DNA from: a virus
Lineage: Duplodnaviria; Heunggongvirae; Uroviricota; Caudoviricetes
Length of the DNA stretch: 14,590 bases
Strand: one strand, 5' to 3'
IMG/VR virus record: IMGVR_UViG_2585427790_000008
Shown here: piece after piece, positions 1 through 14,590 of the stretch
Position numbering within the stretch: position 1 is the first letter of the stretch
Layout: each line of letters opens with the position of its first letter
Translations under genes and position numbers: made by a program
Notes under the pieces: model-generated
Databases searched by the model: none
What the model was told of the DNA's origin: nothing
Seen by the model: the letters and a program-made list of their open reading frames with translations, nothing else

Positions 1-216
1 GTGAAAGTCATCATTGTTGAAGACGAATTCCTGGCACAACAGGAACTGAGCTGGCTAATTAAAGAGCACAGCCAGATGGAGATTGTCGGCACCTTTGACG
101 ACGGTCTGGACGTGTTGAAGTTTTTGCAGCATAACCGCGTCGACGCCATTTTTCTGGATATCAATATTCCGTCGCTGGATGGCGTGTTGCTGGCGCAAAA
201 CATCAGCCAGTTATAG
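1..216 (+). pseudogene. ypdB: 5' fragment (71 codons) of a LytTR-family two-component response regulator; receiver domain cut off mid-domain by the prophage insertion
   Basis: ORF translation MKVIIVEDEF...FLDINIPSLDG has the receiver-domain acidic pocket (EDE) and the phospho-acceptor Asp in FLDIN; it matches my recollection of the E. coli YpdB N-terminus up to NISQ and then hits a stop (QL*) where the native protein continues. Symbol is from memory, not from a search. Confidence 0.6.
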
Positions 217-224
217 CGCGGCGA

Positions 225-302
225 TTTTTTTGATACCGATTTGCATTTCATTTGATACCGCTGAAAAACGCCGATACGCAACTTATTTGATACTAAATCG
301 GC
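225..302. repeat. Three direct copies of TTTGATAC(C/T) (228-237, 251-260, 286-294) plus a 7-bp inverted repeat CGCCGAT/ATCGGCG (270-276 / 296-302); candidate transposase-binding end sites
   Basis: Repeats read directly from the sequence, sitting between the host junction and the mom stop. This is the position of the attR R1-R3 sites in Mu; the sequences are not identical to the Mu consensus. Confidence 0.3.
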
Positions 303-339
303 GCTTTTCTTTTGAGTTTTAGAATGAGTTTTTAAGCGT

Positions 340-1077
340 TCATTCACTCTCTTTCAAACCAGTTTTAACTGTTTGTGGTTTTGGGTAAGGCTGGACTTTG
401 AATAGCTTTGTGTTAAGGCGTTTTCTGGCTCTCTTGTCCAGAAACCGGATGTAACGAAACTGACGGAATTTATGAACACTGGCTCTGTCGATATTAGCCC
501 GCAGATGTTCACCTCGCTGTCCTCCTCGTTTGATTGCATTCTTGCAAATCTCGTGATACCACTCGCCATCAAGTTCATAGAATGTTGTTTCATGACTGCC
601 TACATAATCAAAATTGCTTGCCTGGTACACGACACCAAGACAGCCACAACGCTCATCTGCAAACGACTGAACCCACTGCACCTGCGGATAAAGTTGTCTG
701 ATTAGTTTGAGCGCGTAACTGATTGCCCTTGATTCGGAGTTTCTCGGCATACAGTCATGCAGCCATAACCGGTTAAGCTCCATATATTCGCGGTTCTGCG
801 TGCCAGTTACGACGCGTGCACCATTGTTTGGATTAAGGGCATAACCCCATTGCATTACGCCAACCAGCTCCCGTTCTGAAAATATGCCCAGATGAAGGTA
901 GGAATTATTTACGAAACGATGGCTGTAATGTTTATTGACGACGACCAGCCGGGCCAGCCAGCAACTTATTGTCTCAACCCGTAACTCACGGGAGCCATAA
1001 CCGACGATATTGTCGTTATAGTGAATAAGTTCAGGCGTGCTGATGATACGGGATGTAACTTGCTTTCTGTTCCCCAC
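340..1077 (-). CDS. mom: Mom-like DNA-modification protein (start uncertain; GTG at 1075-1077 proposed, ORF is open up to 1272)
   Basis: Last gene before the prophage end, same strand as com and overlapping its 3' end, as in Mu. I do not recall the Mom sequence, so the call is by synteny only. Confidence 0.5.
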
Positions 1078-1231
1078 GACAGGATTTCCTTGTGTATGTG
1101 GGGTGCTCTGTGGCGCTCTGAGATGTGATTTGATTGAGGGTTTTACAGCGCGGACATTTAACTTCCAGATAACTGAAGCTGGCTCGTGCCAGTAGCTTGT
1201 TACAATGTCGGCACCGTATGTTTCGATACAT
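1031..1231 (-). CDS. com: Com-like zinc-finger translational activator of mom
   Basis: [44 protein letters not shown] has the CxxC...CxxC pattern and matches Mu Com (IRCKNCNKLL...IRCPRCK...EHP). AGGAGG lies 10 nt upstream of the ATG at 1229-1231. The track ORF starts 15 codons earlier. Confidence 0.7.
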
Positions 1232-1276
1232 GGCCGCATAACCTCCTGCTTTGTTGTTGATATCTTTATCACTCAA

Positions 1277-1298
1277 TCGATCGACAAAAACGATCGAT
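1277..1298. promoter_or_regulatory. Cluster of two GATC (Dam) sites inside the short palindromes TCGATCGA / CGATCGAT, 48-65 bp upstream of com
   Basis: GATC at 1279-1282 and 1292-1295. Mu mom has a Dam/OxyR-controlled GATC cluster upstream of its promoter. Confidence 0.35.
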
Positions 1299-1487
1299 TT
1301 GATTTATTTAATTGATACAACAAATAACACGAAATGTCATTAGCGAAAATTTATGAGTTTGATCACTAATTTTAAACGGTGCTGTAACGCATAAGTGCTG
1401 AATGATTGTACATTTGAATACCGCAAAGCAAACAAATCAACTAATTTATAGAAGTCAATTGGTTAATTGCCAGCGTAAGAGGCTGCT

Positions 1488-1781
1488 ATGGACAATCATG
1501 TAACGACGAGAAATCGAAAAATGATTGAAAATGCGGAAATCTATAATGATTATTTTTCCGATTATTCAGATGCCTGCAAATACAGTTCGAGTGCGGGAGA
1601 GTTCATATGCTTCAACTTTTTTATTAAATCTTATGTTTTTCCTCCACAGCAAGAAGATGGAGGTGTGCCACCTCCTGAAATCACTTTGCACCGTATAGCC
1701 TCCGTCTCAATGATGGAGCAACAGGCTAATGAGCTGTATAGCATTCTGGGAACGATTCTACAAAAGCGTGAATCGGACTAA
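1488..1781 (+). CDS. Hypothetical protein (97 aa), AT-rich, no recognisable motif
   Basis: ORF with AAGAGG 6 nt upstream of the ATG; lies in a low-GC island between com and the esterase cluster. Confidence 0.3.
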   Translation: MDNHVTTRNRKMIENAEIYNDYFSDYSDACKYSSSAGEFICFNFFIKSYVFPPQQEDGGVPPPEITLHRIASVSMMEQQANELYSILGTILQKRESD

Positions 1782-1948: not shown

Positions 1949-2203
1949 TTACATCATGGTACTGTCAGTTCCGGGCTGAGCCGGGTCTGGTTGCTCTGGC
2001 TGCGCGTCGGTTTTCGGCTCATTATCAGCATCACTGGCCGCAACTGCTGGCCCAATAAGTTTTGCCAGCACTTCATCAACGTAAGTGTCGATTTGTGCCT
2101 CAAAATCCTTGCGGACCTGCGCTTTCAGCAACTTATTTACTTCACCGGAATACAGTGCCTGTTTTACCAGGTCTTCAGTGACGGTGCCTTTAATTTCTGG
2201 CAT
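1949..2203 (-). CDS. Hypothetical protein (84 aa), acidic Pro/Gln-rich C-terminus
   Basis: Strong RBS (AAGGAGGATATACATG). Preferred over the overlapping + strand ORF 1946..2332, which has no RBS. Confidence 0.45.
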   Translation of the reverse strand: MPEIKGTVTEDLVKQALYSGEVNKLLKAQVRKDFEAQIDTYVDEVLAKLIGPAVAASDADNEPKTDAQPEQPDPAQPGTDSTMM

Positions 2204-2238: not shown

Positions 2239-2421
2239 TCAGGGCTGGGTCGGGTCTTTTGGGAGCGGAGTTACCTGCGCTGTTTTACTGAGTTTTTCAG
2301 CTGCTGCGTCCTCAATTTTGCGGCGAACATAATTTCTGATGGCCTTATAACCACCACTCACCAGATATAACGCACATACTGCCGTGCAGAAATACAATAA
2401 AATAAGCTGTAAAAATGTCAT
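2239..2421 (-). CDS. Small predicted single-pass membrane protein (~60 aa)
   Basis: Hydrophobic stretch FLQLILLYFCTAVCALYLV followed by a basic region. GGGAGGG lies upstream of the ATG at 2419-2421; the track ORF starts at an upstream TTG (2433). Confidence 0.4.
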   Translation of the reverse strand: MTFLQLILLYFCTAVCALYLVSGGYKAIRNYVRRKIEDAAAEKLSKTAQVTPLPKDPTQP

Positions 2422-2517
2422 TATCCCTCCCAATTATTGACATGGTGTTGACACCGGTAATATCTGTTAGGTAAAAAGGTGCACTGCATTTTTTGCTTTG
2501 GATATAACGATCTTTTT

Positions 2518-2565: not shown

Positions 2566-4620
2566 TTACGCGTTATTCACTTCCACCACGATACTGTCAA
2601 TCAGTACCGGGTAAGTCGCATTTTTAGTGATATCGGTCACGCGCAACTTGTCTGCCGTAAACGTGCCGACCGGAGACTGCGACAGCATGAATGGTGTCCC
2701 GTCCTTACCATCAATGACCGGCGTCACCTCAATACTGTTGTTACCGGCAAAACGGAAGCCCAGCGTATGCCATTCGTTATTAAATGCGCCGAATGACCCC
2801 AGCTTCGTGTTCTGCGCCGTGTTTCCTTTGTGATACATCACGTTAAGGTCTGTGGCATCGCTCTGTACGTAGAACGATGCCAGCAGGTTATGACCGGCAT
2901 TTCCTTCCAGAGTAACCCCTTGCGGCAGGGCAGAAACCGGCCAGTACAGCGCCAGTGCGTACTGATTAGCCGTAAGCGCGCCATCGAGTTTAAAACGACA
3001 ACTGACAAGACCACCTTTACCCAGCAGGTCCGCACCATTACCAGCATCATGCTCAAGGTACCAGGGGGCTCTTCCTGTTTCCTTGGTCAGTTTCATTGCC
3101 TTACCCCCGCTGGCTCCGGCATCATCCACGATTTGAGCCTTGCCACCTCCGGCAGCCCAACCCTGTGGTGTCAACCGTCCTTCAGACTCAGATGCCCGGT
3201 AAGCAAATAGCGTACTCATCGTCGTGGTGTCTGCGGGTGGCGTGGACGGTTTTGATGGTGTATCAGGTGACGGCTTCTCATCCGGTGGTGTCACGGTCTG
3301 CCCGCGCATCAGTTCAGCCGTGCGCCCTGCATGGAGCATAATAGCTGAGGCCAGACGGTCTGAAATGACGCCCCTGCGTGCCCATGAGCTGAAATGGCTG
3401 TCACGCTGTGTCGAAACAAAACTGCCCTGGGTTCGGGATGCTGCACCGTAATACCCGACAGCCACAATATCCGGGTCTTCCGCCGGAGCATTCGTTGGCG
3501 TGCTCTGTCCATTCTCATCCGTCAGGAACGGTACAAAGAAAATTTTCTGTGCTTCCTTGCCTTTGTAGCCACCGTATACTGCCTCATATTTATCGGTGCC
3601 AGCGTTTTTCCAGTAATACGTGGTATCACCGCAAATCCACGGCACCGTGGTGGCATTTCCACTCACGCACTGCGCAGCAAGCGGAGCCAGGTCAGTTCTG
3701 AACTGCTGAACCATGGCCGTGAATAAACTATTATGCTGCTGGCTTCCTGAGGCAAGGTCTGCCTCTCCCTGCATCCAGACCACAGCCAGAAGTTTGTTTT
3801 TCGGGTTTTTCGCCAGCGCGACTTTGGTGCGGCTTACCAGGTCCTGATACAGAGGTTTACCGGCCCCCCAGCGTGAAGAATCAGCGGAAGCACCGCTGGC
3901 CTCACTGAATGAGCCGTCGGCTCCAGTGGTGAATGCTGACCCGCCACGACAACAGGGCACCAGAAGTATCCCGGCATTCTGTGGGATATAGGGAAGCAGT
4001 TTTTTGGCAATATGCAACCCCTGACCGACAGTCCCGTACTGGCCTTTTGCCAGATCAGCTTTCGGGTGGTTTATCCCGCTCATATCCTGAACATCATGCA
4101 GGCAGTGGTCTGCCGGAATGATGTCGTTGTATGTACACGACGTACCGTTGGGCGTTACCGTACTGCGGCGTGCCAGTTGCTTAATGCGTGGGTCCGGGCG
4201 GTCAAACGAATCCGGTAACGGCAGCCCCTCGCCGTAGGCCATGCCATTTGACTGACCCGCGAGAATGACAACAAAGTAATATTCCGGCTCTGAACTGCTG
4301 CCATTCGTGCTACCGGAAGGCCCGGCGTTATCCGGTGCATTCCAGTCGGAGGGCGTGAGCGTTCCGGCCACGTCAGATGTGATTGGAATGATGCCAGTCA
4401 CGCCTGAACTGGTGATTTCTGCACTGGGATTACCGGATACCGGCATTACCCATAATGGCTCTTTCGTGCTGAAGCGGATCACGCAGTCTGCGAAGGTGAT
4501 CCCCCCTTTATTACCCGAAGGGCGGAAAGGGCTTTCAATAAATGCCACCGTGCCACCGGCAACCTTGACTGAAAACTCTCCGGGCATGGCGGAGAGCATT
4601 TTCCACTTGGAGTCTGACAT
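2566..4620 (-). CDS. SGNH/SASA-family sialate O-acetylesterase-like protein (prophage NanS-p-like), 684 aa
   Basis: GQSN catalytic-serine motif (VVILAGQSNGMAYGEG) and downstream WMQGEAD motif typical of SASA esterases; Ser/Thr/Pro-rich linkers; long C-terminal beta-rich region. Confidence 0.7.
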   Translation of the reverse strand: MSDSKWKMLSAMPGEFSVKVAGGTVAFIESPFRPSGNKGGITFADCVIRFSTKEPLWVMPVSGNPSAEITSSGVTGIIPITSDVAGTLTPSDWNAPDNAGPSGSTNGSSSEPEYYFVVILAGQSNGMAYGEGLPLPDSFDRPDPRIKQLARRSTVTPNGTSCTYNDIIPADHCLHDVQDMSGINHPKADLAKGQYGTVGQGLHIAKKLLPYIPQNAGILLVPCCRGGSAFTTGADGSFSEASGASADSSRWGAGKPLYQDLVSRTKVALAKNPKNKLLAVVWMQGEADLASGSQQHNSLFTAMVQQFRTDLAPLAAQCVSGNATTVPWICGDTTYYWKNAGTDKYEAVYGGYKGKEAQKIFFVPFLTDENGQSTPTNAPAEDPDIVAVGYYGAASRTQGSFVSTQRDSHFSSWARRGVISDRLASAIMLHAGRTAELMRGQTVTPPDEKPSPDTPSKPSTPPADTTTMSTLFAYRASESEGRLTPQGWAAGGGKAQIVDDAGASGGKAMKLTKETGRAPWYLEHDAGNGADLLGKGGLVSCRFKLDGALTANQYALALYWPVSALPQGVTLEGNAGHNLLASFYVQSDATDLNVMYHKGNTAQNTKLGSFGAFNNEWHTLGFRFAGNNSIEVTPVIDGKDGTPFMLSQSPVGTFTADKLRVTDITKNATYPVLIDSIVVEVNNA

Positions 4621-4705
4621 CGTCTTTTCTGCCTGTTTCTGAATTAAACAGAGTCAGAATAGCGACCGCTGAAAAATATGTGTTTTGCGGAAATTCAAAA
4701 AAGCG

Positions 4706-5277
4706 TCACGGTACTTTTGGTGACGGAGCTGGTGAGGCAGGAAAATAACGATAAAGGGTGGAAAGGCCAATATCAAATATCAGTGCGATTTGTTTACGGG
4801 ACTCGCCATTAGCCAGCAAACGGGCGATTTGCTCCCGCTCTTTCTCTGTCAGTTTCTGAGGTCTGCCGCCATGACGCCCCTGAGCACGGGCAGCAGCAAG
4901 ACCCGCGCGTGTACGTTCAATAATGAGTTCCCGCTCCATTTCCGCCAGCGCGCCCATTATATGGAAAAGAAACGTCCCATGGGAGTGGATGTATCAATAT
5001 TGTCCGTAATGCTGCGGAAGTTAACGCCGCGTTGCCGGAGTTCTTCTGTTAAAAGGACAAGGTGCTGCATACTGCGTCCAAGGCGATCCAGTTTCCAGAC
5101 CAGCAGGGTATCCCCTGGCCGGAGTCGCTTTAATGCGCGTTTAAGTCCGGGACGCTCCCTTGTCTTACCGCTTATTCTGTCTTCGAAAAACAGCTCACAT
5201 CCTGCACATTCCAGCGCATTTCTTTGTAGCGCCGTATTCTGGTCATTTGTTGACACCCTGATATACCCAATCAGCAT
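4706..5277 (-). pseudogene. gin: Gin/Pin/Hin-family serine DNA invertase split by a -1 frameshift
   Basis: N-terminal ORF MLIGYIRVSTNDQ...PMGRFFSI* and C-terminal ORF MGALAEMERELIIERT...STLYRY match Mu Gin either side of ...MGRFFFHVMGALAEMERE. One T is missing from a T-run (+ strand A4 at 4955-4958). Confidence 0.8.
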
Positions 5278-5342
5278 ACGATTTCCTTATTATAAAAAGC
5301 CGGAATTGTCGCATGAGGAATAAAACAGAGTTAATCCTGGCT

Positions 5343-5368
5343 TTCCTGAAAACCTCGGTTTACGGGAA
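5343..5368. other. gix/hix-like 26-bp recombination site TTCCTGAAAACC-TC-GGTTTACGGGAA (invertase-proximal)
   Basis: Imperfect 12-bp dyad half-sites around a 2-bp core, resembling Mu gix and Salmonella hix; sits at the outer edge of the inverted repeat. Confidence 0.6.
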
Positions 5369-5481
5369 ACGGTAAACAGGGCGGCGAATGCCCTGCCATC
5401 GGACGGCACCGCCGTTGCCGCGAACAGGCTGGCAAATGCCCACACAATTAATGGTGTTCCCTTTGACGGGACGCAGGATAT
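5355..5481. repeat. Inverted-repeat copy (proximal), ~127 bp, imperfect, paired with 6547..6673
   Basis: The + strand 5355-5481 aligns by eye with the reverse complement of 6547-6673. Both encode [26 protein letters not shown]...[12 protein letters not shown]. Confidence 0.8.
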
Positions 5482-6311: not shown

Positions 6312-7202
6312 TTATAACTGAGATACCGTAATCCATGTACCTCCGACTAATTTTTGCAGGGGTCTGAATGCTATAAAATCGTTTGAAGCATCAACTTTAC
6401 TGTCAATCTGCAGGCCTGCCATAACATTACCGTACGCAGAGTAATATGCCCCACCGTACATTACCTGCCTGTTCTCTGCTCCCAGCCTGATATCCTGGAT
6501 ATATCGGGAATCCGCATCCTGCTGTGTTATACCAGAAGTGATGTTTATGTCCTGCGTCCCGTCAAAGGGAACCCCATTAATATTTCTTGGGGTGGCGAGT
6601 CTATTCGCGGCAACGGCGGTGCCGTCCGATGGCAGAGCATTCGCCGCCCTGTTTACCGTTTCCCGTAAACCGACGTTATCGATAAAAGCCCCTTTATCCG
6701 GAATGTCTGCGCCGTTCTGCTCCCTGCGCAGGTAACGGTTATCACCTTCGCTTTTGCTGTAAACATCCAGATTATTACGGGCGGTTCCCTTATTCTCCAG
6801 GTCGGCGAGATTCTGATCCTTCGCCAGGGCATTAACGTCAGCGGGACCAAGACTGTTTTTTGTGGCAAGCGTCCCCAGACCAAGATAACCACGGGCCAGA
6901 CGCTGGGCCTCCGCACCGGCATCAGCAATTTCTTTCAGGTTATTTTTCCGGGAAAAGGCATTCGCAGCGATAATGGCTTTAATGGACAGCGTAAGCTGGT
7001 TTAACTGCGCCTTATCCGGCTGAATACTGGCTTCAGCCAGAATATTCAGCAGTTCGGCCTGGAGAATATTCAGCCAGTCCTGACCAATCCAGCTGATACC
7101 TTTTTGTCCGTCACCTTCGGTAAACCAGGTGGTGGTATTACTCTGCGCTGGTGCCAGCGCAGGCATATTCGCCACGCCGGAATTATTATCAACATGAAAC
7201 AT
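6312..7202 (-). CDS. Tail-fibre protein (Mu S-like), 296 aa, with its C-terminal third inside the invertible segment
   Basis: N-terminus [27 protein letters not shown] is typical of Mu/P2-type fibres; start overlaps the upstream stop (TAATG coupling). Confidence 0.8.
6547..6673. repeat. Inverted-repeat copy (distal), within the tail-fibre coding sequence
   Basis: Reverse complement matches 5355-5481 apart from a ~22-bp divergent patch and scattered mismatches. Confidence 0.8.
6661..6686. other. gix/hix-like 26-bp recombination site (distal); reverse complement reads TTATCGATAACG-TC-GGTTTACGGGAA
   Basis: Shares the right half-site and the TC core with the proximal site; the left half-site resembles hixR-type TTATCAAAAACC. 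Confidence 0.55.
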
Positions 7203-11046: not shown

Positions 11047-11454
11047 TTACGGCGCACAAAACGTTGCCAGCCGGTACTGTTCCCGGTGGCACGGTACAGG
11101 GTCACCAGTGCAGGCTCGGTGGTACGTACAGTCACTACTGTTGCACCGGGTAACGTTAATACAGCCCATCAGGCGAACCGCCTGAAACAGTGCGCGCAGC
11201 TCCTGGACTGTCTGAGTTTCCACAAACTGCGGCGGTTCCGGCAGTGCGCTTTGTTTATTCCAGTTCTCATACCAGGAGCGCAGGGAAGCAGCCACAGCAG
11301 CGTTATCGCCTTTATATTTTCCCTTACGGAAAGCCGATAATGTGCCGTCGGAAATTCCCGCCTCTCTGGCGATGGCATACTGCGTCAGTACGCCGCCATC
11401 AATAAGTTCATCAATGGTCTTGATTACATCGTTAATATCGGTCATATTATTCAC
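11047..11454 (-). pseudogene. Truncated Mu B-like transposition protein: N-terminal DNA-binding domain only, AAA+ ATPase domain deleted
   Basis: ...AIAREAGISDGTLSAFRKGKYKGDNAAVAASLRSWYENW...LPEPPQFVETQTV aligns with the MuB N-terminus (...LPEPPRFVETQTV); the Walker A box (GNPGVGKT) expected next is absent and the frame ends 35-40 codons later. Confidence 0.75.
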
Positions 11455-11527: not shown

Positions 11528-13618
11528 TCAGGCCAGCGGATCACTTTCTTTTAATTTCGCTTCGAGCAGTTGCAATCCCCGCTGGAAATTACGCTCGTAT
11601 TCTTCATCAGGTTCATCGTCAGCGACCGGTTGCTGAACGGTCACCGTATTACCCACAGGGCGGTATATGTTTTCCAGCCAGGGCTCCTGCGGCTTGTGCT
11701 CCAGCACGTTGACAACCTCATCCTCGGCATCACGGATTTTTTCCTCTGCGCGTTTACGCATGCCTTTAAGGCGCTGCTGCTGTTTGTAGTATTCCGCGCT
11801 GACAGGGAAGGCTTCGCGTTTATTGCCGTCCCATACCGCCTCGCAAATCACGCTGCCATCCGGGCGGCGCACGGTAATTCGTTCGGCATCATGAATGTCA
11901 TAGCTGATAAGTACCTTACGGCCATGCTCGTCACGCAGCTCGGGCGCGTAGTAAATATTATTCAGCCAGCGTATTTCACAGCGTCTTACAGGGCGCTCCA
12001 CCATCGGCCGGAACATATCCCGCAGTTCAACATCGGACAGCCATTCAATTTCCGTGTCCTCTTCCGCCAGGCGTTTTTTTCTGAACTCCGCCGGGCTGTA
12101 ATGTTTACCGTTCGGCTTCATGGGTAATTCATCGTGCGGCCGGTTGTTGTACCACTCAACACCGTCACGAATGGCATCAATCAGTTCAGACCAGGACGGT
12201 AAATCACGCATCGCTGACTGCTGCCGGGCGTTCAGCCGTTTGCCCTGTTGCAGGGCACTGAATGCCGAGCGTAAATCGCGGTTGGTTTTACGTAACGTCT
12301 CGCGATCTGCTCCTTTCCCGAAATAGGTGCGGTATTTACGGGCTATGCGCATCGGTAATGTGCGGTTAAGCCGTTCGATAATGCCCCGTCCCTGCGGATT
12401 ACCGGCAATCCCTGTCGGGTGATTAATCCCCAGTCGTGGCAGTATCCCCACAATCTCCTTATCCAGGACGTCGGCGGTTTCCCCGGAGCCATTATCCGAG
12501 TAATACAGAAACGGTTTGCCATGATGGCGAATACCGTGCTGTATGGCACCGGCTACGGCGAAAACATTTTCAGCCAGGTCAAGGCTCCAGCCCACCACAA
12601 AGCGCGTGCCACCGTCGATAACAAAGGTCACTTCCGGTGCGAATGGCCGCCCGTGAACCGGGTGCGCGCATTTCAGCTTCATGCCGTGACCGTCACCAAT
12701 CCAGACATAATTCACCGGCATTCTGGACCAGTCGCGGCGCGTGAATCCCTCAAGCTGACGGTATTCACTGCCAGTTACCCGGCCTTTTTGTTTCACCACT
12801 TCCGGCAGTTTCTTCATTGCGCGGCGAATGGTGTCATAAGAGGGCATGATATCGAGCATATAAGGCTCATCAGCGTGCCGGTGCTGCCATTCAGCAACAA
12901 AATCCTCGTAAGCCTCGGTCATTGGTCGGCCGTTTGACTGGCGATACTGCGCCAGAAATTCGGGCAGCCAGTTAATATCTTCGGCTTTTATTTCCTGGCG
13001 TTTACCCGGTGCCAGTAAAAGCAGGCGTTCAGCGGCGTTCTGTGCCTTGTTAAAGGCCGCAATCCAGCGTTTCAGCGTGATTTCACTCAACGCGCGGCTG
13101 TTTCCCTTTTTGGCGTTCGCCGTCTCAACCATTGCCACAATGCGCTCGTCCAGTTGTGATCGTGCCAGGCTGTTAACGAGGAACCGGATAGCCTTAGCGC
13201 AACTAAAGCCGGGTTGTTGCGCGATTTTCAGCACCTCGCTGACGATCGCTATTCGTGCCTCTGCCACTTTACGTTGGTTTTCAGTCAGGGCATTGAGGCG
13301 TTCGACCATCAGTTGGGGTGATCCGCGATATGCCTCCACCGCATCAACCACGGCAGGTGAGCGTCTGGCCTTTGTCACCACCGGAGCCGGTGATTCATCG
13401 GCTTTTTGCGTCATCAGTTGCAGGGCGTAGCGTTCACGTAATGCCTGCTGCGTCACTTCAGGTAAACAGTCGATGCTGTATTCAGTTGCTTTAGAGCCTG
13501 AGCGACGACGGGAACAACAGCTTTTCCCTTGTACGTAACGTTGTAATGCCTGGCGAATACCTTTTGTTGTAGCAGGCATTCCGGGCGCGCCAATCAGTTC
13601 TTTTGCAATGACATACAT
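11528..13618 (-). CDS. Mu A-like DDE transposase, 696 aa, apparently intact
   Basis: Length and position after ner; candidate DDE residues in WIGDGH, YYSDNGSGE and IIERLNR, spaced as in MuA. Confidence 0.8.
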   Translation of the reverse strand: MYVIAKELIGAPGMPATTKGIRQALQRYVQGKSCCSRRRSGSKATEYSIDCLPEVTQQALRERYALQLMTQKADESPAPVVTKARRSPAVVDAVEAYRGSPQLMVERLNALTENQRKVAEARIAIVSEVLKIAQQPGFSCAKAIRFLVNSLARSQLDERIVAMVETANAKKGNSRALSEITLKRWIAAFNKAQNAAERLLLLAPGKRQEIKAEDINWLPEFLAQYRQSNGRPMTEAYEDFVAEWQHRHADEPYMLDIMPSYDTIRRAMKKLPEVVKQKGRVTGSEYRQLEGFTRRDWSRMPVNYVWIGDGHGMKLKCAHPVHGRPFAPEVTFVIDGGTRFVVGWSLDLAENVFAVAGAIQHGIRHHGKPFLYYSDNGSGETADVLDKEIVGILPRLGINHPTGIAGNPQGRGIIERLNRTLPMRIARKYRTYFGKGADRETLRKTNRDLRSAFSALQQGKRLNARQQSAMRDLPSWSELIDAIRDGVEWYNNRPHDELPMKPNGKHYSPAEFRKKRLAEEDTEIEWLSDVELRDMFRPMVERPVRRCEIRWLNNIYYAPELRDEHGRKVLISYDIHDAERITVRRPDGSVICEAVWDGNKREAFPVSAEYYKQQQRLKGMRKRAEEKIRDAEDEVVNVLEHKPQEPWLENIYRPVGNTVTVQQPVADDEPDEEYERNFQRGLQLLEAKLKESDPLA

Positions 13619-13619
13619 A

Positions 13620-13868
13620 TCATGACGCCTTTCTCATATAGCTCTTAACCTGGTATCGACTGGGCCAGATTTCTTCAGGTGATACCCCAAGAGCATCAGC
13701 AATTATTTGCTGATACGGTCGGCAAGGAGTACGTAATACGCTTTTCAGCGAATCCCTGCTGTAACCAGCCTTTAAAGATAAAGAGCGCAGTGATAAGCCA
13801 GCCATGTGTAAGCGCGCCTTGATGATTTCAGGCGGCCAATCGTGATCTGAAACTTCTCTTCTACTCAT
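13620..13868 (-). CDS. ner: Ner-like DNA-binding regulator, 82 aa
   Basis: ...LSLRSLSLKAGYSRDSL...QQIIADALGVSPEEIWPSRY matches Mu Ner (...LSLSALSRQFGY...EQIIANALETKPEVIWPSRY); RBS GAGGAAG upstream; ends 1 nt before the A start. Confidence 0.85.
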   Translation of the reverse strand: MSRREVSDHDWPPEIIKARLHMAGLSLRSLSLKAGYSRDSLKSVLRTPCRPYQQIIADALGVSPEEIWPSRYQVKSYMRKAS

Positions 13869-14059
13869 ACTTCCTCTATTCTAAAAAGTTACCCGCGCGG
13901 ATATTCGTGCGGATATCTGTACGGGTAAATAATGCATCACCAAAAATACCAAATCAAGGTATTTTTGGTATTTTTGGCTAATTTTTGCTTTTACCCTTAT
14001 TTTTCAATTGGATAAATAGAAAGAAACCTTTCCTTAGAAAAGCACCAAGAGGTATCTTT
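13869..14059. promoter_or_regulatory. Divergent repressor/ner control region with operator-like palindromes
   Basis: CCAAAAATACC-7 nt-GGTATTTTTGG followed by a tandem TATTTTTGG, between divergently oriented c and ner (~13941-13976). Confidence 0.5.
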
Positions 14060-14590
14060 ATGTCGCAGGGAAAAGAACCTGTTATTGAACGTATTGGAAT
14101 GCTTACAAAGCGCTACCCTTCAAGAAGTGCAGCTGCCAGAGCGTGGGGAATCAATATCAACACATTAAACAGCTATTTCAAGGGAGGACAAACACAACCA
14201 GCCCCCAGAGAAAGTATCCTTATACGAATTTCTGAAAGTGAAGGCGTTAGTCTTGAGTGGCTTAAAGAGGGCAAGGGTGAATTACCAAACGATATTGGTA
14301 TTTATGGTAATTTTGGTTGTTCTGGTGATAAGGGAGATCAGCTTACACAGATGCTTTCATTCCTTACGAAAGACGAACGAGAACAGTTAACCAATCTCCT
14401 TGCTCGCAAAGGTGTAGAGACGGTTCTGACACTGCTGAATAAAGAAAACCAGGATTTATTACAACTAGAAGGCAGGAAGCGCCTGGCTGCGTTGATGATT
14501 GTAGATATGCCAGACGATTGCGTCAGAGAGATTTTGGAAAAAACCGAGACAAGTAGGCAATCAAATCCGGTAGAATCTAAAGCGGGTTAG
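14060..14590 (+). CDS. Mu c-type prophage repressor (176 aa); stop codon is the last 3 nt of the window
   Basis: Divergent from ner across an operator region; start chosen at the ATG with AAGAGG 7 nt upstream (the track ORF starts 25 codons earlier at 13985). Confidence 0.65.
   Translation: MSQGKEPVIERIGMLTKRYPSRSAAARAWGININTLNSYFKGGQTQPAPRESILIRISESEGVSLEWLKEGKGELPNDIGIYGNFGCSGDKGDQLTQMLSFLTKDEREQLTNLLARKGVETVLTLLNKENQDLLQLEGRKRLAALMIVDMPDDCVREILEKTETSRQSNPVESKAG

Follow-up and report, generated by a model that had tools for sequence, protein, structure and literature searches.

The window analysed here, 14,590 nucleotides of IMG/VR record IMGVR_UViG_2585427790_000008 (Caudoviricetes), covers most of a defective Mu-like prophage that interrupts ypdB of E. 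coli and carries the com-mom operon at its right end. The operon is an ordinary member of the Mu com-mom family and is already annotated as such in RefSeq. What departs from the textbook layout, as inferred from the sequence, is that a Dam/OxyR half-site has moved into the core promoter and that the site for the late activator C is absent, across a whole class of relatives. In the family of the window com-mom is probably not driven from a C-box promoter, and about even chances are given to a weak local promoter, gated by Dam and OxyR, as its driver. Translational control of mom, by Com, an inhibitory hairpin and a GUG start codon, is well supported.

Promoter region upstream of com

The mom promoter of Mu (Pmom) has the order GATC I - N14 - GATC II - N9 - GATC III, followed by the C dyad TTATgccccaATAA, centred at -43.5, and then by an ACCACA -35 element, a 19-bp spacer with a T6 run, the hexamer TAAGAT and com (PMC2582627). 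The window keeps ATCAATTAAAT (in Mu, the 3' end of gin), GATC II - N9 - GATC III and GATCGATT. In contrast to Mu, GATC I is absent, leaving two of the three GATCs, and the approximately 30 bp that hold the C dyad (TTATN6ATAA), the ACCACA -35 and the T6 run are missing; the gap between GATCGATT and TAAAGAT is only 6 bp, and the distance from the GATC pair to the com ATG is 51-64 bp, against 78-91 bp in Mu. The missing dyad and -35 do not reflect decay of this remnant, since the 256-bp region upstream of com is identical in nine IMG/VR loci and in L004, a near-intact relative in E. coli 23CRST047 that encodes C and was used as the reference for comparison.

Relatives fall into two classes by the distance of the proximal GATC from the com ATG: 51-57 bp in the short class (the E. 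coli clade, Edwardsiella L006 and IMG/VR loci L049-L051) and 71-93 bp in the long class (Mu and its relatives, L007/L018, L052 and L054). The short architecture is found in several separate lineages, with Mom proteins 78-81% identical to that of the window. In L049-L051 and L006 the hexamers TATACT or TATAGT, or the sequence TGnTAGATT, some of them near-consensus, follow the GATC pair by 8-10 bp.

The two GATCs of the pair, 48-64 bp upstream of the com ATG, are enclosed in a perfect 9-bp inverted repeat, AATCGATCG-N7-CGATCGATT (1275-1299), which confirms the first-pass annotation where it had placed two GATCs in short palindromes. Neither a GATC pair nor an inverted repeat alone is statistically unusual within the window: there are 36 GATCs in all, some of them forming further pairs at distances of 12-21 bp, and short inverted repeats of a comparable kind number 20. 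The pair is regarded as significant because it is conserved, and not because of statistics within the window. Among 35 distinct sequences taken from upstream of com in other elements (including Mu, D108-like phages, Edwardsiella, Symbiopectobacterium and many IMG/VR genomes), 29 have such a pair, likewise spaced by 13 bp, and the pair considered here is homologous to GATC II/III of Mu, with identical spacing and shared flanks. The dyad is invariant in the clade except for a change in L044 just downstream of the proximal GATC. A third GATC (1361-1364) falls outside the conserved module.

The best match to the 37-nt OxyR tetramer consensus (Table 1) has the same score as the established OxyR-bound region of Mu, and an equal or better score was reached at only 6 of ~29,000 window positions (top 0.02%). 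Taken with the shared flanks and spacing, this upholds the earlier proposal that the GATCs resemble the Dam/OxyR switch of Mu mom. The Dam/OxyR switches of the gtr operon of Salmonella phage P22 and of E. coli agn43 have GATC pairs at the same distance of 13 bp within an OxyR half-site of the ATAG-N7-CTAT type, which the putative half-site upstream of com resembles (PMC2909390). The half-site overlaps the core promoter in gtr, where the promoter-proximal pair, GATC3/4, is at -46/-33, as is predicted for the com promoter, with about -40/-27. A dedicated phage activator site is absent from gtr-type switches as well. In gtr there are four GATCs in two of three half-sites, and OxyR is both activator and repressor, whereas the region ahead of com has one GATC pair and an upstream half-site without GATC, with OxyR binding predicted.

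As no gene on the plus strand ends at 1275-1299, a terminator-like call made there on that strand was taken to be the GATC dyad. Positions 1-1278 (ypdB', mom and com) contain no GATC, compared with ~3 expected at the average density of the window, the regulatory pair being the first GATCs met from the left.

The gene ahead of com points away from it in every cargo variant examined, which calls for a local promoter. The conserved block starts only about 90 bp upstream of com; the com promoter should therefore lie within this block. The sequence ATCAATTAA at 1308-1325 (minus strand), upstream of com, matches the last codons and the stop of Mu gin, while the actual gin of this prophage ends differently, 3.4 kb from com. 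It is also here (…tatttgttgtatcaattaa) that the cargo modules of relatives, which differ from one another, meet the conserved com block. These observations suggest that recombination took place at this point or that an ancestor with gin next to com left a relic there.

In the model that we favour, transcription would start around 1255 from a weak local promoter with its -10 at about 1268-1262. The GATC pair and OxyR half-site would fill the -35 and the spacer: with the -10 so placed, the GATCs are near -27 and -40, so that a protein on the dyad would cover this part of the promoter. With the GATCs unmethylated, reduced OxyR would directly repress the promoter; methylation by Dam would lift this repression. 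Homology and covariation show that one transcript encodes Com and then, in another frame and overlapping, Mom, with the mom GUG and its ribosome-binding site locked in the conserved hairpin at 1103-1072. In Mu, binding of Com to the adjacent hairpin opens the inhibitory one; by homology the same would hold here. As the short architecture has no C site, the loss of C is probably not limiting for mom here; the output expected from such a promoter is low.

The C activator and other possible routes of transcription

No Mor/C homologue was found in the window by tblastn with Mu C, Mu Mor and the C orthologue of L004 (best E 0.2). C is absent from the element because a deletion removed it. By comparison with L004, the first ~100 codons of B are joined at 11152/11153 to the 3' end of N, giving a chimeric open reading frame of 135 residues (B'-'N, 11047-11454, minus strand); the semi-essential early region, the Mor/C-type activator and the lysis, head, sheath, tube and tape-measure genes have been lost between B and N. 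A C gene just beyond the window was ruled out. The window stops at the end of the repressor gene, and in DLI.5a, which has the same ypdB insertion and in which the repressor gene ends at the same place, 3' ypdB resumes ~245 bp further on, so that the left end of the prophage is ~245 bp past the end of the window. The first-pass annotation had reported C as absent from the visible part of the prophage; with both ends accounted for and the stretch from B codon ~100 to the end of N deleted, the absence extends to the element.

L004 encodes a single protein of the Mor/C family, as is the case for the family of the window, which differs in this from Mu. The C protein of the family (WP_000852373.1), as found in L004, shares 40% of its residues with Mu C (E 5e-38) and 27% with Mor, and its gene is directly upstream of the lysis genes, the same place as that of C in Mu. 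The family C-box, defined from L004, is TTTCTG-N6-CGCAAA followed 23 bp later by TAyGCT, and it is exact at Plys and PI; a first guess at the box, CCGCAAAnCCnGCCCC, was refined to this dyad by comparison of relatives. In 29 loci, the C proteins of which are 82-100% identical, neither the box nor the -10 varies, unlike the spacer between them. As in Mu, the dyad is about 23 bp upstream of the -10 at Plys, at PI and at a promoter after gin, although its sequence is unlike that of the Mu box. A C-rich element at 32767-32782 of L004, just upstream of the Mor/C gene and with two mismatches to the first motif tried, hints at autoregulation or at an analogue of the middle promoter in a family with a single activator.

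In the window the post-gin box (4701-4684) falls between the nearby end of gin and the DUF6645 gene, the place of Pmom in Mu. It is orphaned here, since C is deleted, and this late promoter apparently drives the cargo genes and not com-mom, a further difference from Mu. Within 170 bp upstream of com the family C-box had no match at up to 3/12 mismatches, and the Mu C dyad was absent from the same interval. For the C orthologues of the distant short-class loci L049-L051, a scan with single sequences found only close relatives, so no C-box was derived. According to the first-pass annotation mom must need C or be silent. That view assumes a Mu-type Pmom, but the C dyad and -35 are absent here; silence without C is unproven, as C-encoding relatives with an identical com upstream region also have no C dyad, and the C-box is not near com.

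Several observations weigh against the local-promoter model. In the E. coli clade the -10 is poor (TAAAGAT), varies among close relatives and is destroyed in some (AAAGGC, GCAAAC). A scan with the sigma-70 consensus found no promoter on the com strand upstream of com, no -35 is recognisable, and an unknown activator may therefore still be needed. The C sites of Mu at Pmom and Plys differ substantially, so a degenerate C site near com may escape a motif search. In Mu, Mom is toxic when deregulated, a reason to expect that mom is tied to the lytic cascade. At the level of the RNA, the 4-bp stem of the predicted Com-target hairpin contains one C.A mismatch (1115/1104) in the clade of the window, and Com binding is not assured.

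Transcription of mom might depend on C as in Mu, through a diverged or unrecognised site, in which case the operon would be silent here unless a co-resident relative supplied C in trans. We consider this doubtful, though it deserves serious attention. A local promoter that looks too weak alone and the dissimilarity of the two Mu C sites both speak for it. So does TOE17, in which the ypdB copy is without C and has different deletions, while a second family member, between citD and citE, keeps C and an identical com-mom; the coexistence of C-less and C-bearing copies makes a C homologue from elsewhere, as suggested in the first-pass annotation, realistic. Mu Pmom is strictly C-dependent (PMC3378877, PMC2582627). 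Set against these points are the failure of an otherwise invariant C-box to appear near com at the tolerance given above, the occupation of the -43.5 position by the GATC/OxyR half-site, and the good -10 hexamers of the other short-class lineages.

Transcription could also reach com-mom by read-through from the post-gin C-box promoter, as a long late operon of DUF6645, DUF1378, DUF826, com and mom in which the GATC module would be vestigial. This promoter stands just after gin, at exactly the place of Pmom in Mu, and the cargo genes share a strand with com-mom. The convergent gene at 1488-1781 (plus strand) and terminator-like hairpins intervene, however, and the cargo modules vary among relatives while ~110 bp next to com, including the GATC dyad, are kept; moreover, in Edwardsiella L006 gin abuts com directly, with the same short architecture. 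Read-through is considered improbable.

com, mom and the control of translation

The first-pass annotation had identified the two genes as com and mom, both intact. The com product (66 residues) matches Pfam Zn_ribbon_Com (PF10122) with E 7.5e-13 (48.2 bits; cutoff 22.9), shares 45% identity with Mu Com and has an N-terminal zinc ribbon of the form CxxC-N16-CxxC (cysteines C6/C9/C26/C29). Its ribosome-binding site, AGGAGG (1247-1242), is 10 nt upstream of the ATG (A at 1231). The mom product (245 residues) matches Pfam Mom (PF25680) with E 7.8e-78 along the full profile (positions 1-202 of 202) and aligns with Mu Mom over 229 residues without gaps at 78% identity; the match to the solved structure of Mu Mom (PDB 8bv8) has E 2.4e-123. 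These matches bear out the identification and dispose of the possibility that 340..1077 has no similarity to the Mom family. As in Mu, and also in D108 and SfMu, the genes have the same order and right-end position and overlap in differing reading frames, here by 47 nt.

In the ungapped alignment with Mu Mom, residues W48, H58, Y59, R111, S124, D149, R151, Y159 and W181 are all kept, and the helix-turn-helix-like insertion at 175-209 is also conserved. R111, S124, D149 and R151 are essential in Mu Mom, and W48, H58, Y59, Y159 and W181 belong to the same list of residues reported to be essential or important there (PMC13219725). Mom is thus predicted to be a tRNA(Gly)-dependent adenine-modifying enzyme of the GNAT-fold family; because all known essential residues are kept, it is expected to turn adenine into N6-carbamoylmethyl-adenine using Gly-tRNA(Gly).

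Annotation of the two proteins is uneven. RefSeq WP_014334043.1 labels Com a "DNA-binding transcriptional regulator", while the literature describes an RNA-binding translational activator, and the identical Mom protein is still labelled "hypothetical" in several genomes. An upstream com is missing from about half of the retrieved Mom homologues (62-79% identical), at loci L005, L008, L013-L016, L019 and L070-L103, from which it appears that Mom is often used without control by Com; many of these are found mid-contig in viral contigs of 40-80 kb and not at a Mu-type end.

Two candidates for the mom start, GTG at 1077-1075 and ATG at 1239-1237, had been left undecided. The start is resolved by sequence comparison as the GTG, which is the exact positional homologue of the Mu start (tgt cGTG GGG here; cat tGTG GGA in Mu) and which RefSeq also uses, at the same coordinates. 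The ATG is present in the mom frame, which is open from 1272. It was rejected: it lies 2 nt past the ribosome-binding site and 8 nt ahead of the com ATG, it would extend the protein by no more than a translation of com in the alternate frame, without Mom homology, the match to Pfam Mom does not set in until 31 residues past the GTG, and Mu uses the homologous GUG. Mu Mom tolerates loss of its first 10 annotated residues, which leaves a protein that begins at the GUG (PMC13219725).

In Mu the GUG start sits in the stem of a translation-inhibition hairpin, and Com binds an adjacent short hairpin with the loop motif CC(N)2-3GAG (PMC6483171). Both elements have counterparts in the window. A Com stem-loop had been expected around 1031-1080; the RNA elements were found, although at 1116-1072, reaching upstream of the GTG. 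The predicted Com-target hairpin has the stem GCGC (1116-1113)/GCAC (1106-1103) and the loop CACAGA (1112-1107), giving the motif CC(N)3GAG, as in Mu. In the inhibitory stem CCCCAC (1103-1098) pairs with GUGGGG (1077-1072), so that the mom GUG is in the stem, and the mom ribosome-binding site, AAGGA (1091-1087), is in the inner helix. Rfam matched no family anywhere in the window.

Covariation was assessed in an alignment (A1) of 14 distinct sequences, with 500 shuffles and slid controls. Across the 14 sequences 96% of cells were paired, none of the 500 shuffles reached the observed covariation score, and the slid controls fell to 23-57% paired. Compensatory changes were found in all four pairs of the Com hairpin (AUGC/GCAU, GCAC/GUGC, GCGU/ACGC and GUGC/GCAC). 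The inhibitory stem is fully paired in 14/14 sequences and invariant except for its basal pair, which covaries (C-G / U-A), and one C-to-U change that keeps a wobble. C1103 can pair with G1116 of the Com hairpin or with G1072 of the inhibitory stem and covaries with both, which would fit a mutually exclusive switch, on the strength of few independent events. In L049-L051 the com leader itself forms a hairpin with compensatory changes (GCCAC/GTGGC versus GCCG/CGGC), the loop of which, CCTCCA, is complementary to the com ribosome-binding site; it is absent in the clade of the window and may add translational control of com itself.

A sceptical reading of the locus is that the operon is dead cargo, which looks intact only because decay is recent, with a promoter and a Com hairpin that no longer work. 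The element is indeed heavily decayed (the B'-'N deletion and a frameshifted gin), the -10 block differs among close relatives, and the Com hairpin has its C.A mismatch. Such a state is nevertheless very unlikely in our estimation. The Com and Mom protein sequences are identical across independently decayed and near-intact copies, the catalytic residues are all kept, and no member of the clade but L044 departs from the GATC dyad. As to the mismatch, it is shared with relatives that are 80%-diverged, which argues that it is tolerated; a close variant, L028, restores U-A at this pair.

The prophage remnant and the biology of mom

The prophage is a remnant of about 14.6 kb, which the window reads from its right end, beginning at about 212 (Table 1). 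Unlike in Mu, 3.4 kb of cargo genes separate gin from com. The ypdB insertion is shared with DLI.5a, AST46 and TOE17, in which the copies have deletions of their own; it is therefore taken to be old and to have decayed independently in each lineage.

Table 1. Features located in the window, in order of position
Feature	Position	Strand	Remarks
Truncated ypdB (5' part)	1-216		Positions 1-211 match ypdB
Prophage right end, adjoining truncated ypdB	212..339		Homology to copies at other insertion sites starts at 211-212
mom	1077..340	minus	
Translation-inhibition hairpin	1103-1072 (1072..1103)	minus	Minimum-free-energy fold and conservation
Predicted Com-target hairpin	1116-1103 (1103..1116)	minus	Positional homologue of the Mu Com-binding hairpin (PMC6483171)
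com	1231..1031	minus	
Candidate weak -10, TAAAGAT	1268-1262 (1262..1268)	minus	By-eye alignment to Mu Pmom (TAAGAT at the equivalent place)
GATC pair in inverted repeat, read as Dam-methylation-sensitive OxyR half-site	1275..1299		GATC at 1279-1282 and 1292-1295
Best match to OxyR tetramer consensus	1316-1280 (1280..1316)	minus	13/20
Open reading frame, no assignment	1488-1781	plus	
DUF826 gene	2203..1949	minus	
DUF1378 gene	2433..2239	minus	
DUF6645 / sialate-esterase-domain gene	4620..2566	minus	
Orphaned family C-box, TTTTTGAATTTCCGCAAA	4701-4684 (4684..4701)	minus	One mismatch; -10 TATTCT at family spacing
gin, frameshifted	5277..4706	minus	
Invertible tail-fibre segment and baseplate genes gp48 to gp44	up to 10993	minus	
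Transposition gene B, first ~100 codons	11454..11153	minus	
Transposase A (MuA)	13618..11528	minus	
ner	13868..13620	minus	
Repressor	13985-14590	plus	

The frameshift breaks gin into two open reading frames (4706-5277). The invertible tail-fibre segment is bounded by inverted repeats of ~143 bp (5339-5481 and 6547-6690) and has the orientation opposite to that in relatives L001 and L004; with gin frameshifted, the segment is therefore considered to be locked. The ner-repressor intergenic region contains a perfect 14-nt inverted repeat, CCAAAAATACCAAA / TTTGGTATTTTTGG (13939-13977), which is likely an operator.

The mom gene of Mu is the textbook case of a toxic gene under multiple controls (C, Dam/OxyR, Fis and Com). 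Of these layers two, Dam/OxyR and Com with the inhibitory hairpin, persist in a widespread relative, which has no C site. The broadest claim, that a class of Mu-like phages (the E. coli clade, an Edwardsiella prophage and several IMG/VR genomes) has shifted the Dam/OxyR half-site into the core mom promoter, dropped the C site and controls mom by GATC methylation alone, is put forward tentatively and is on the unlikely side. Should it hold, mom would either be repressed by OxyR in the lysogen until replication gets ahead of OxyR, or vary in phase as gtr and agn43 do; C-less remnants could then intermittently hypermodify host adenines. If the promoter is inactive, the locus illustrates prophage decay of the ordinary kind, and what is gained is a settled start codon for mom and a corrected annotation. 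If the short promoter is active alone, prophage remnants without lytic regulators could still modify host DNA. Whether the expression of mom is capable of phase variation has been described as unknown (PMC2909390), and with a short promoter active on its own this locus would make the question testable.

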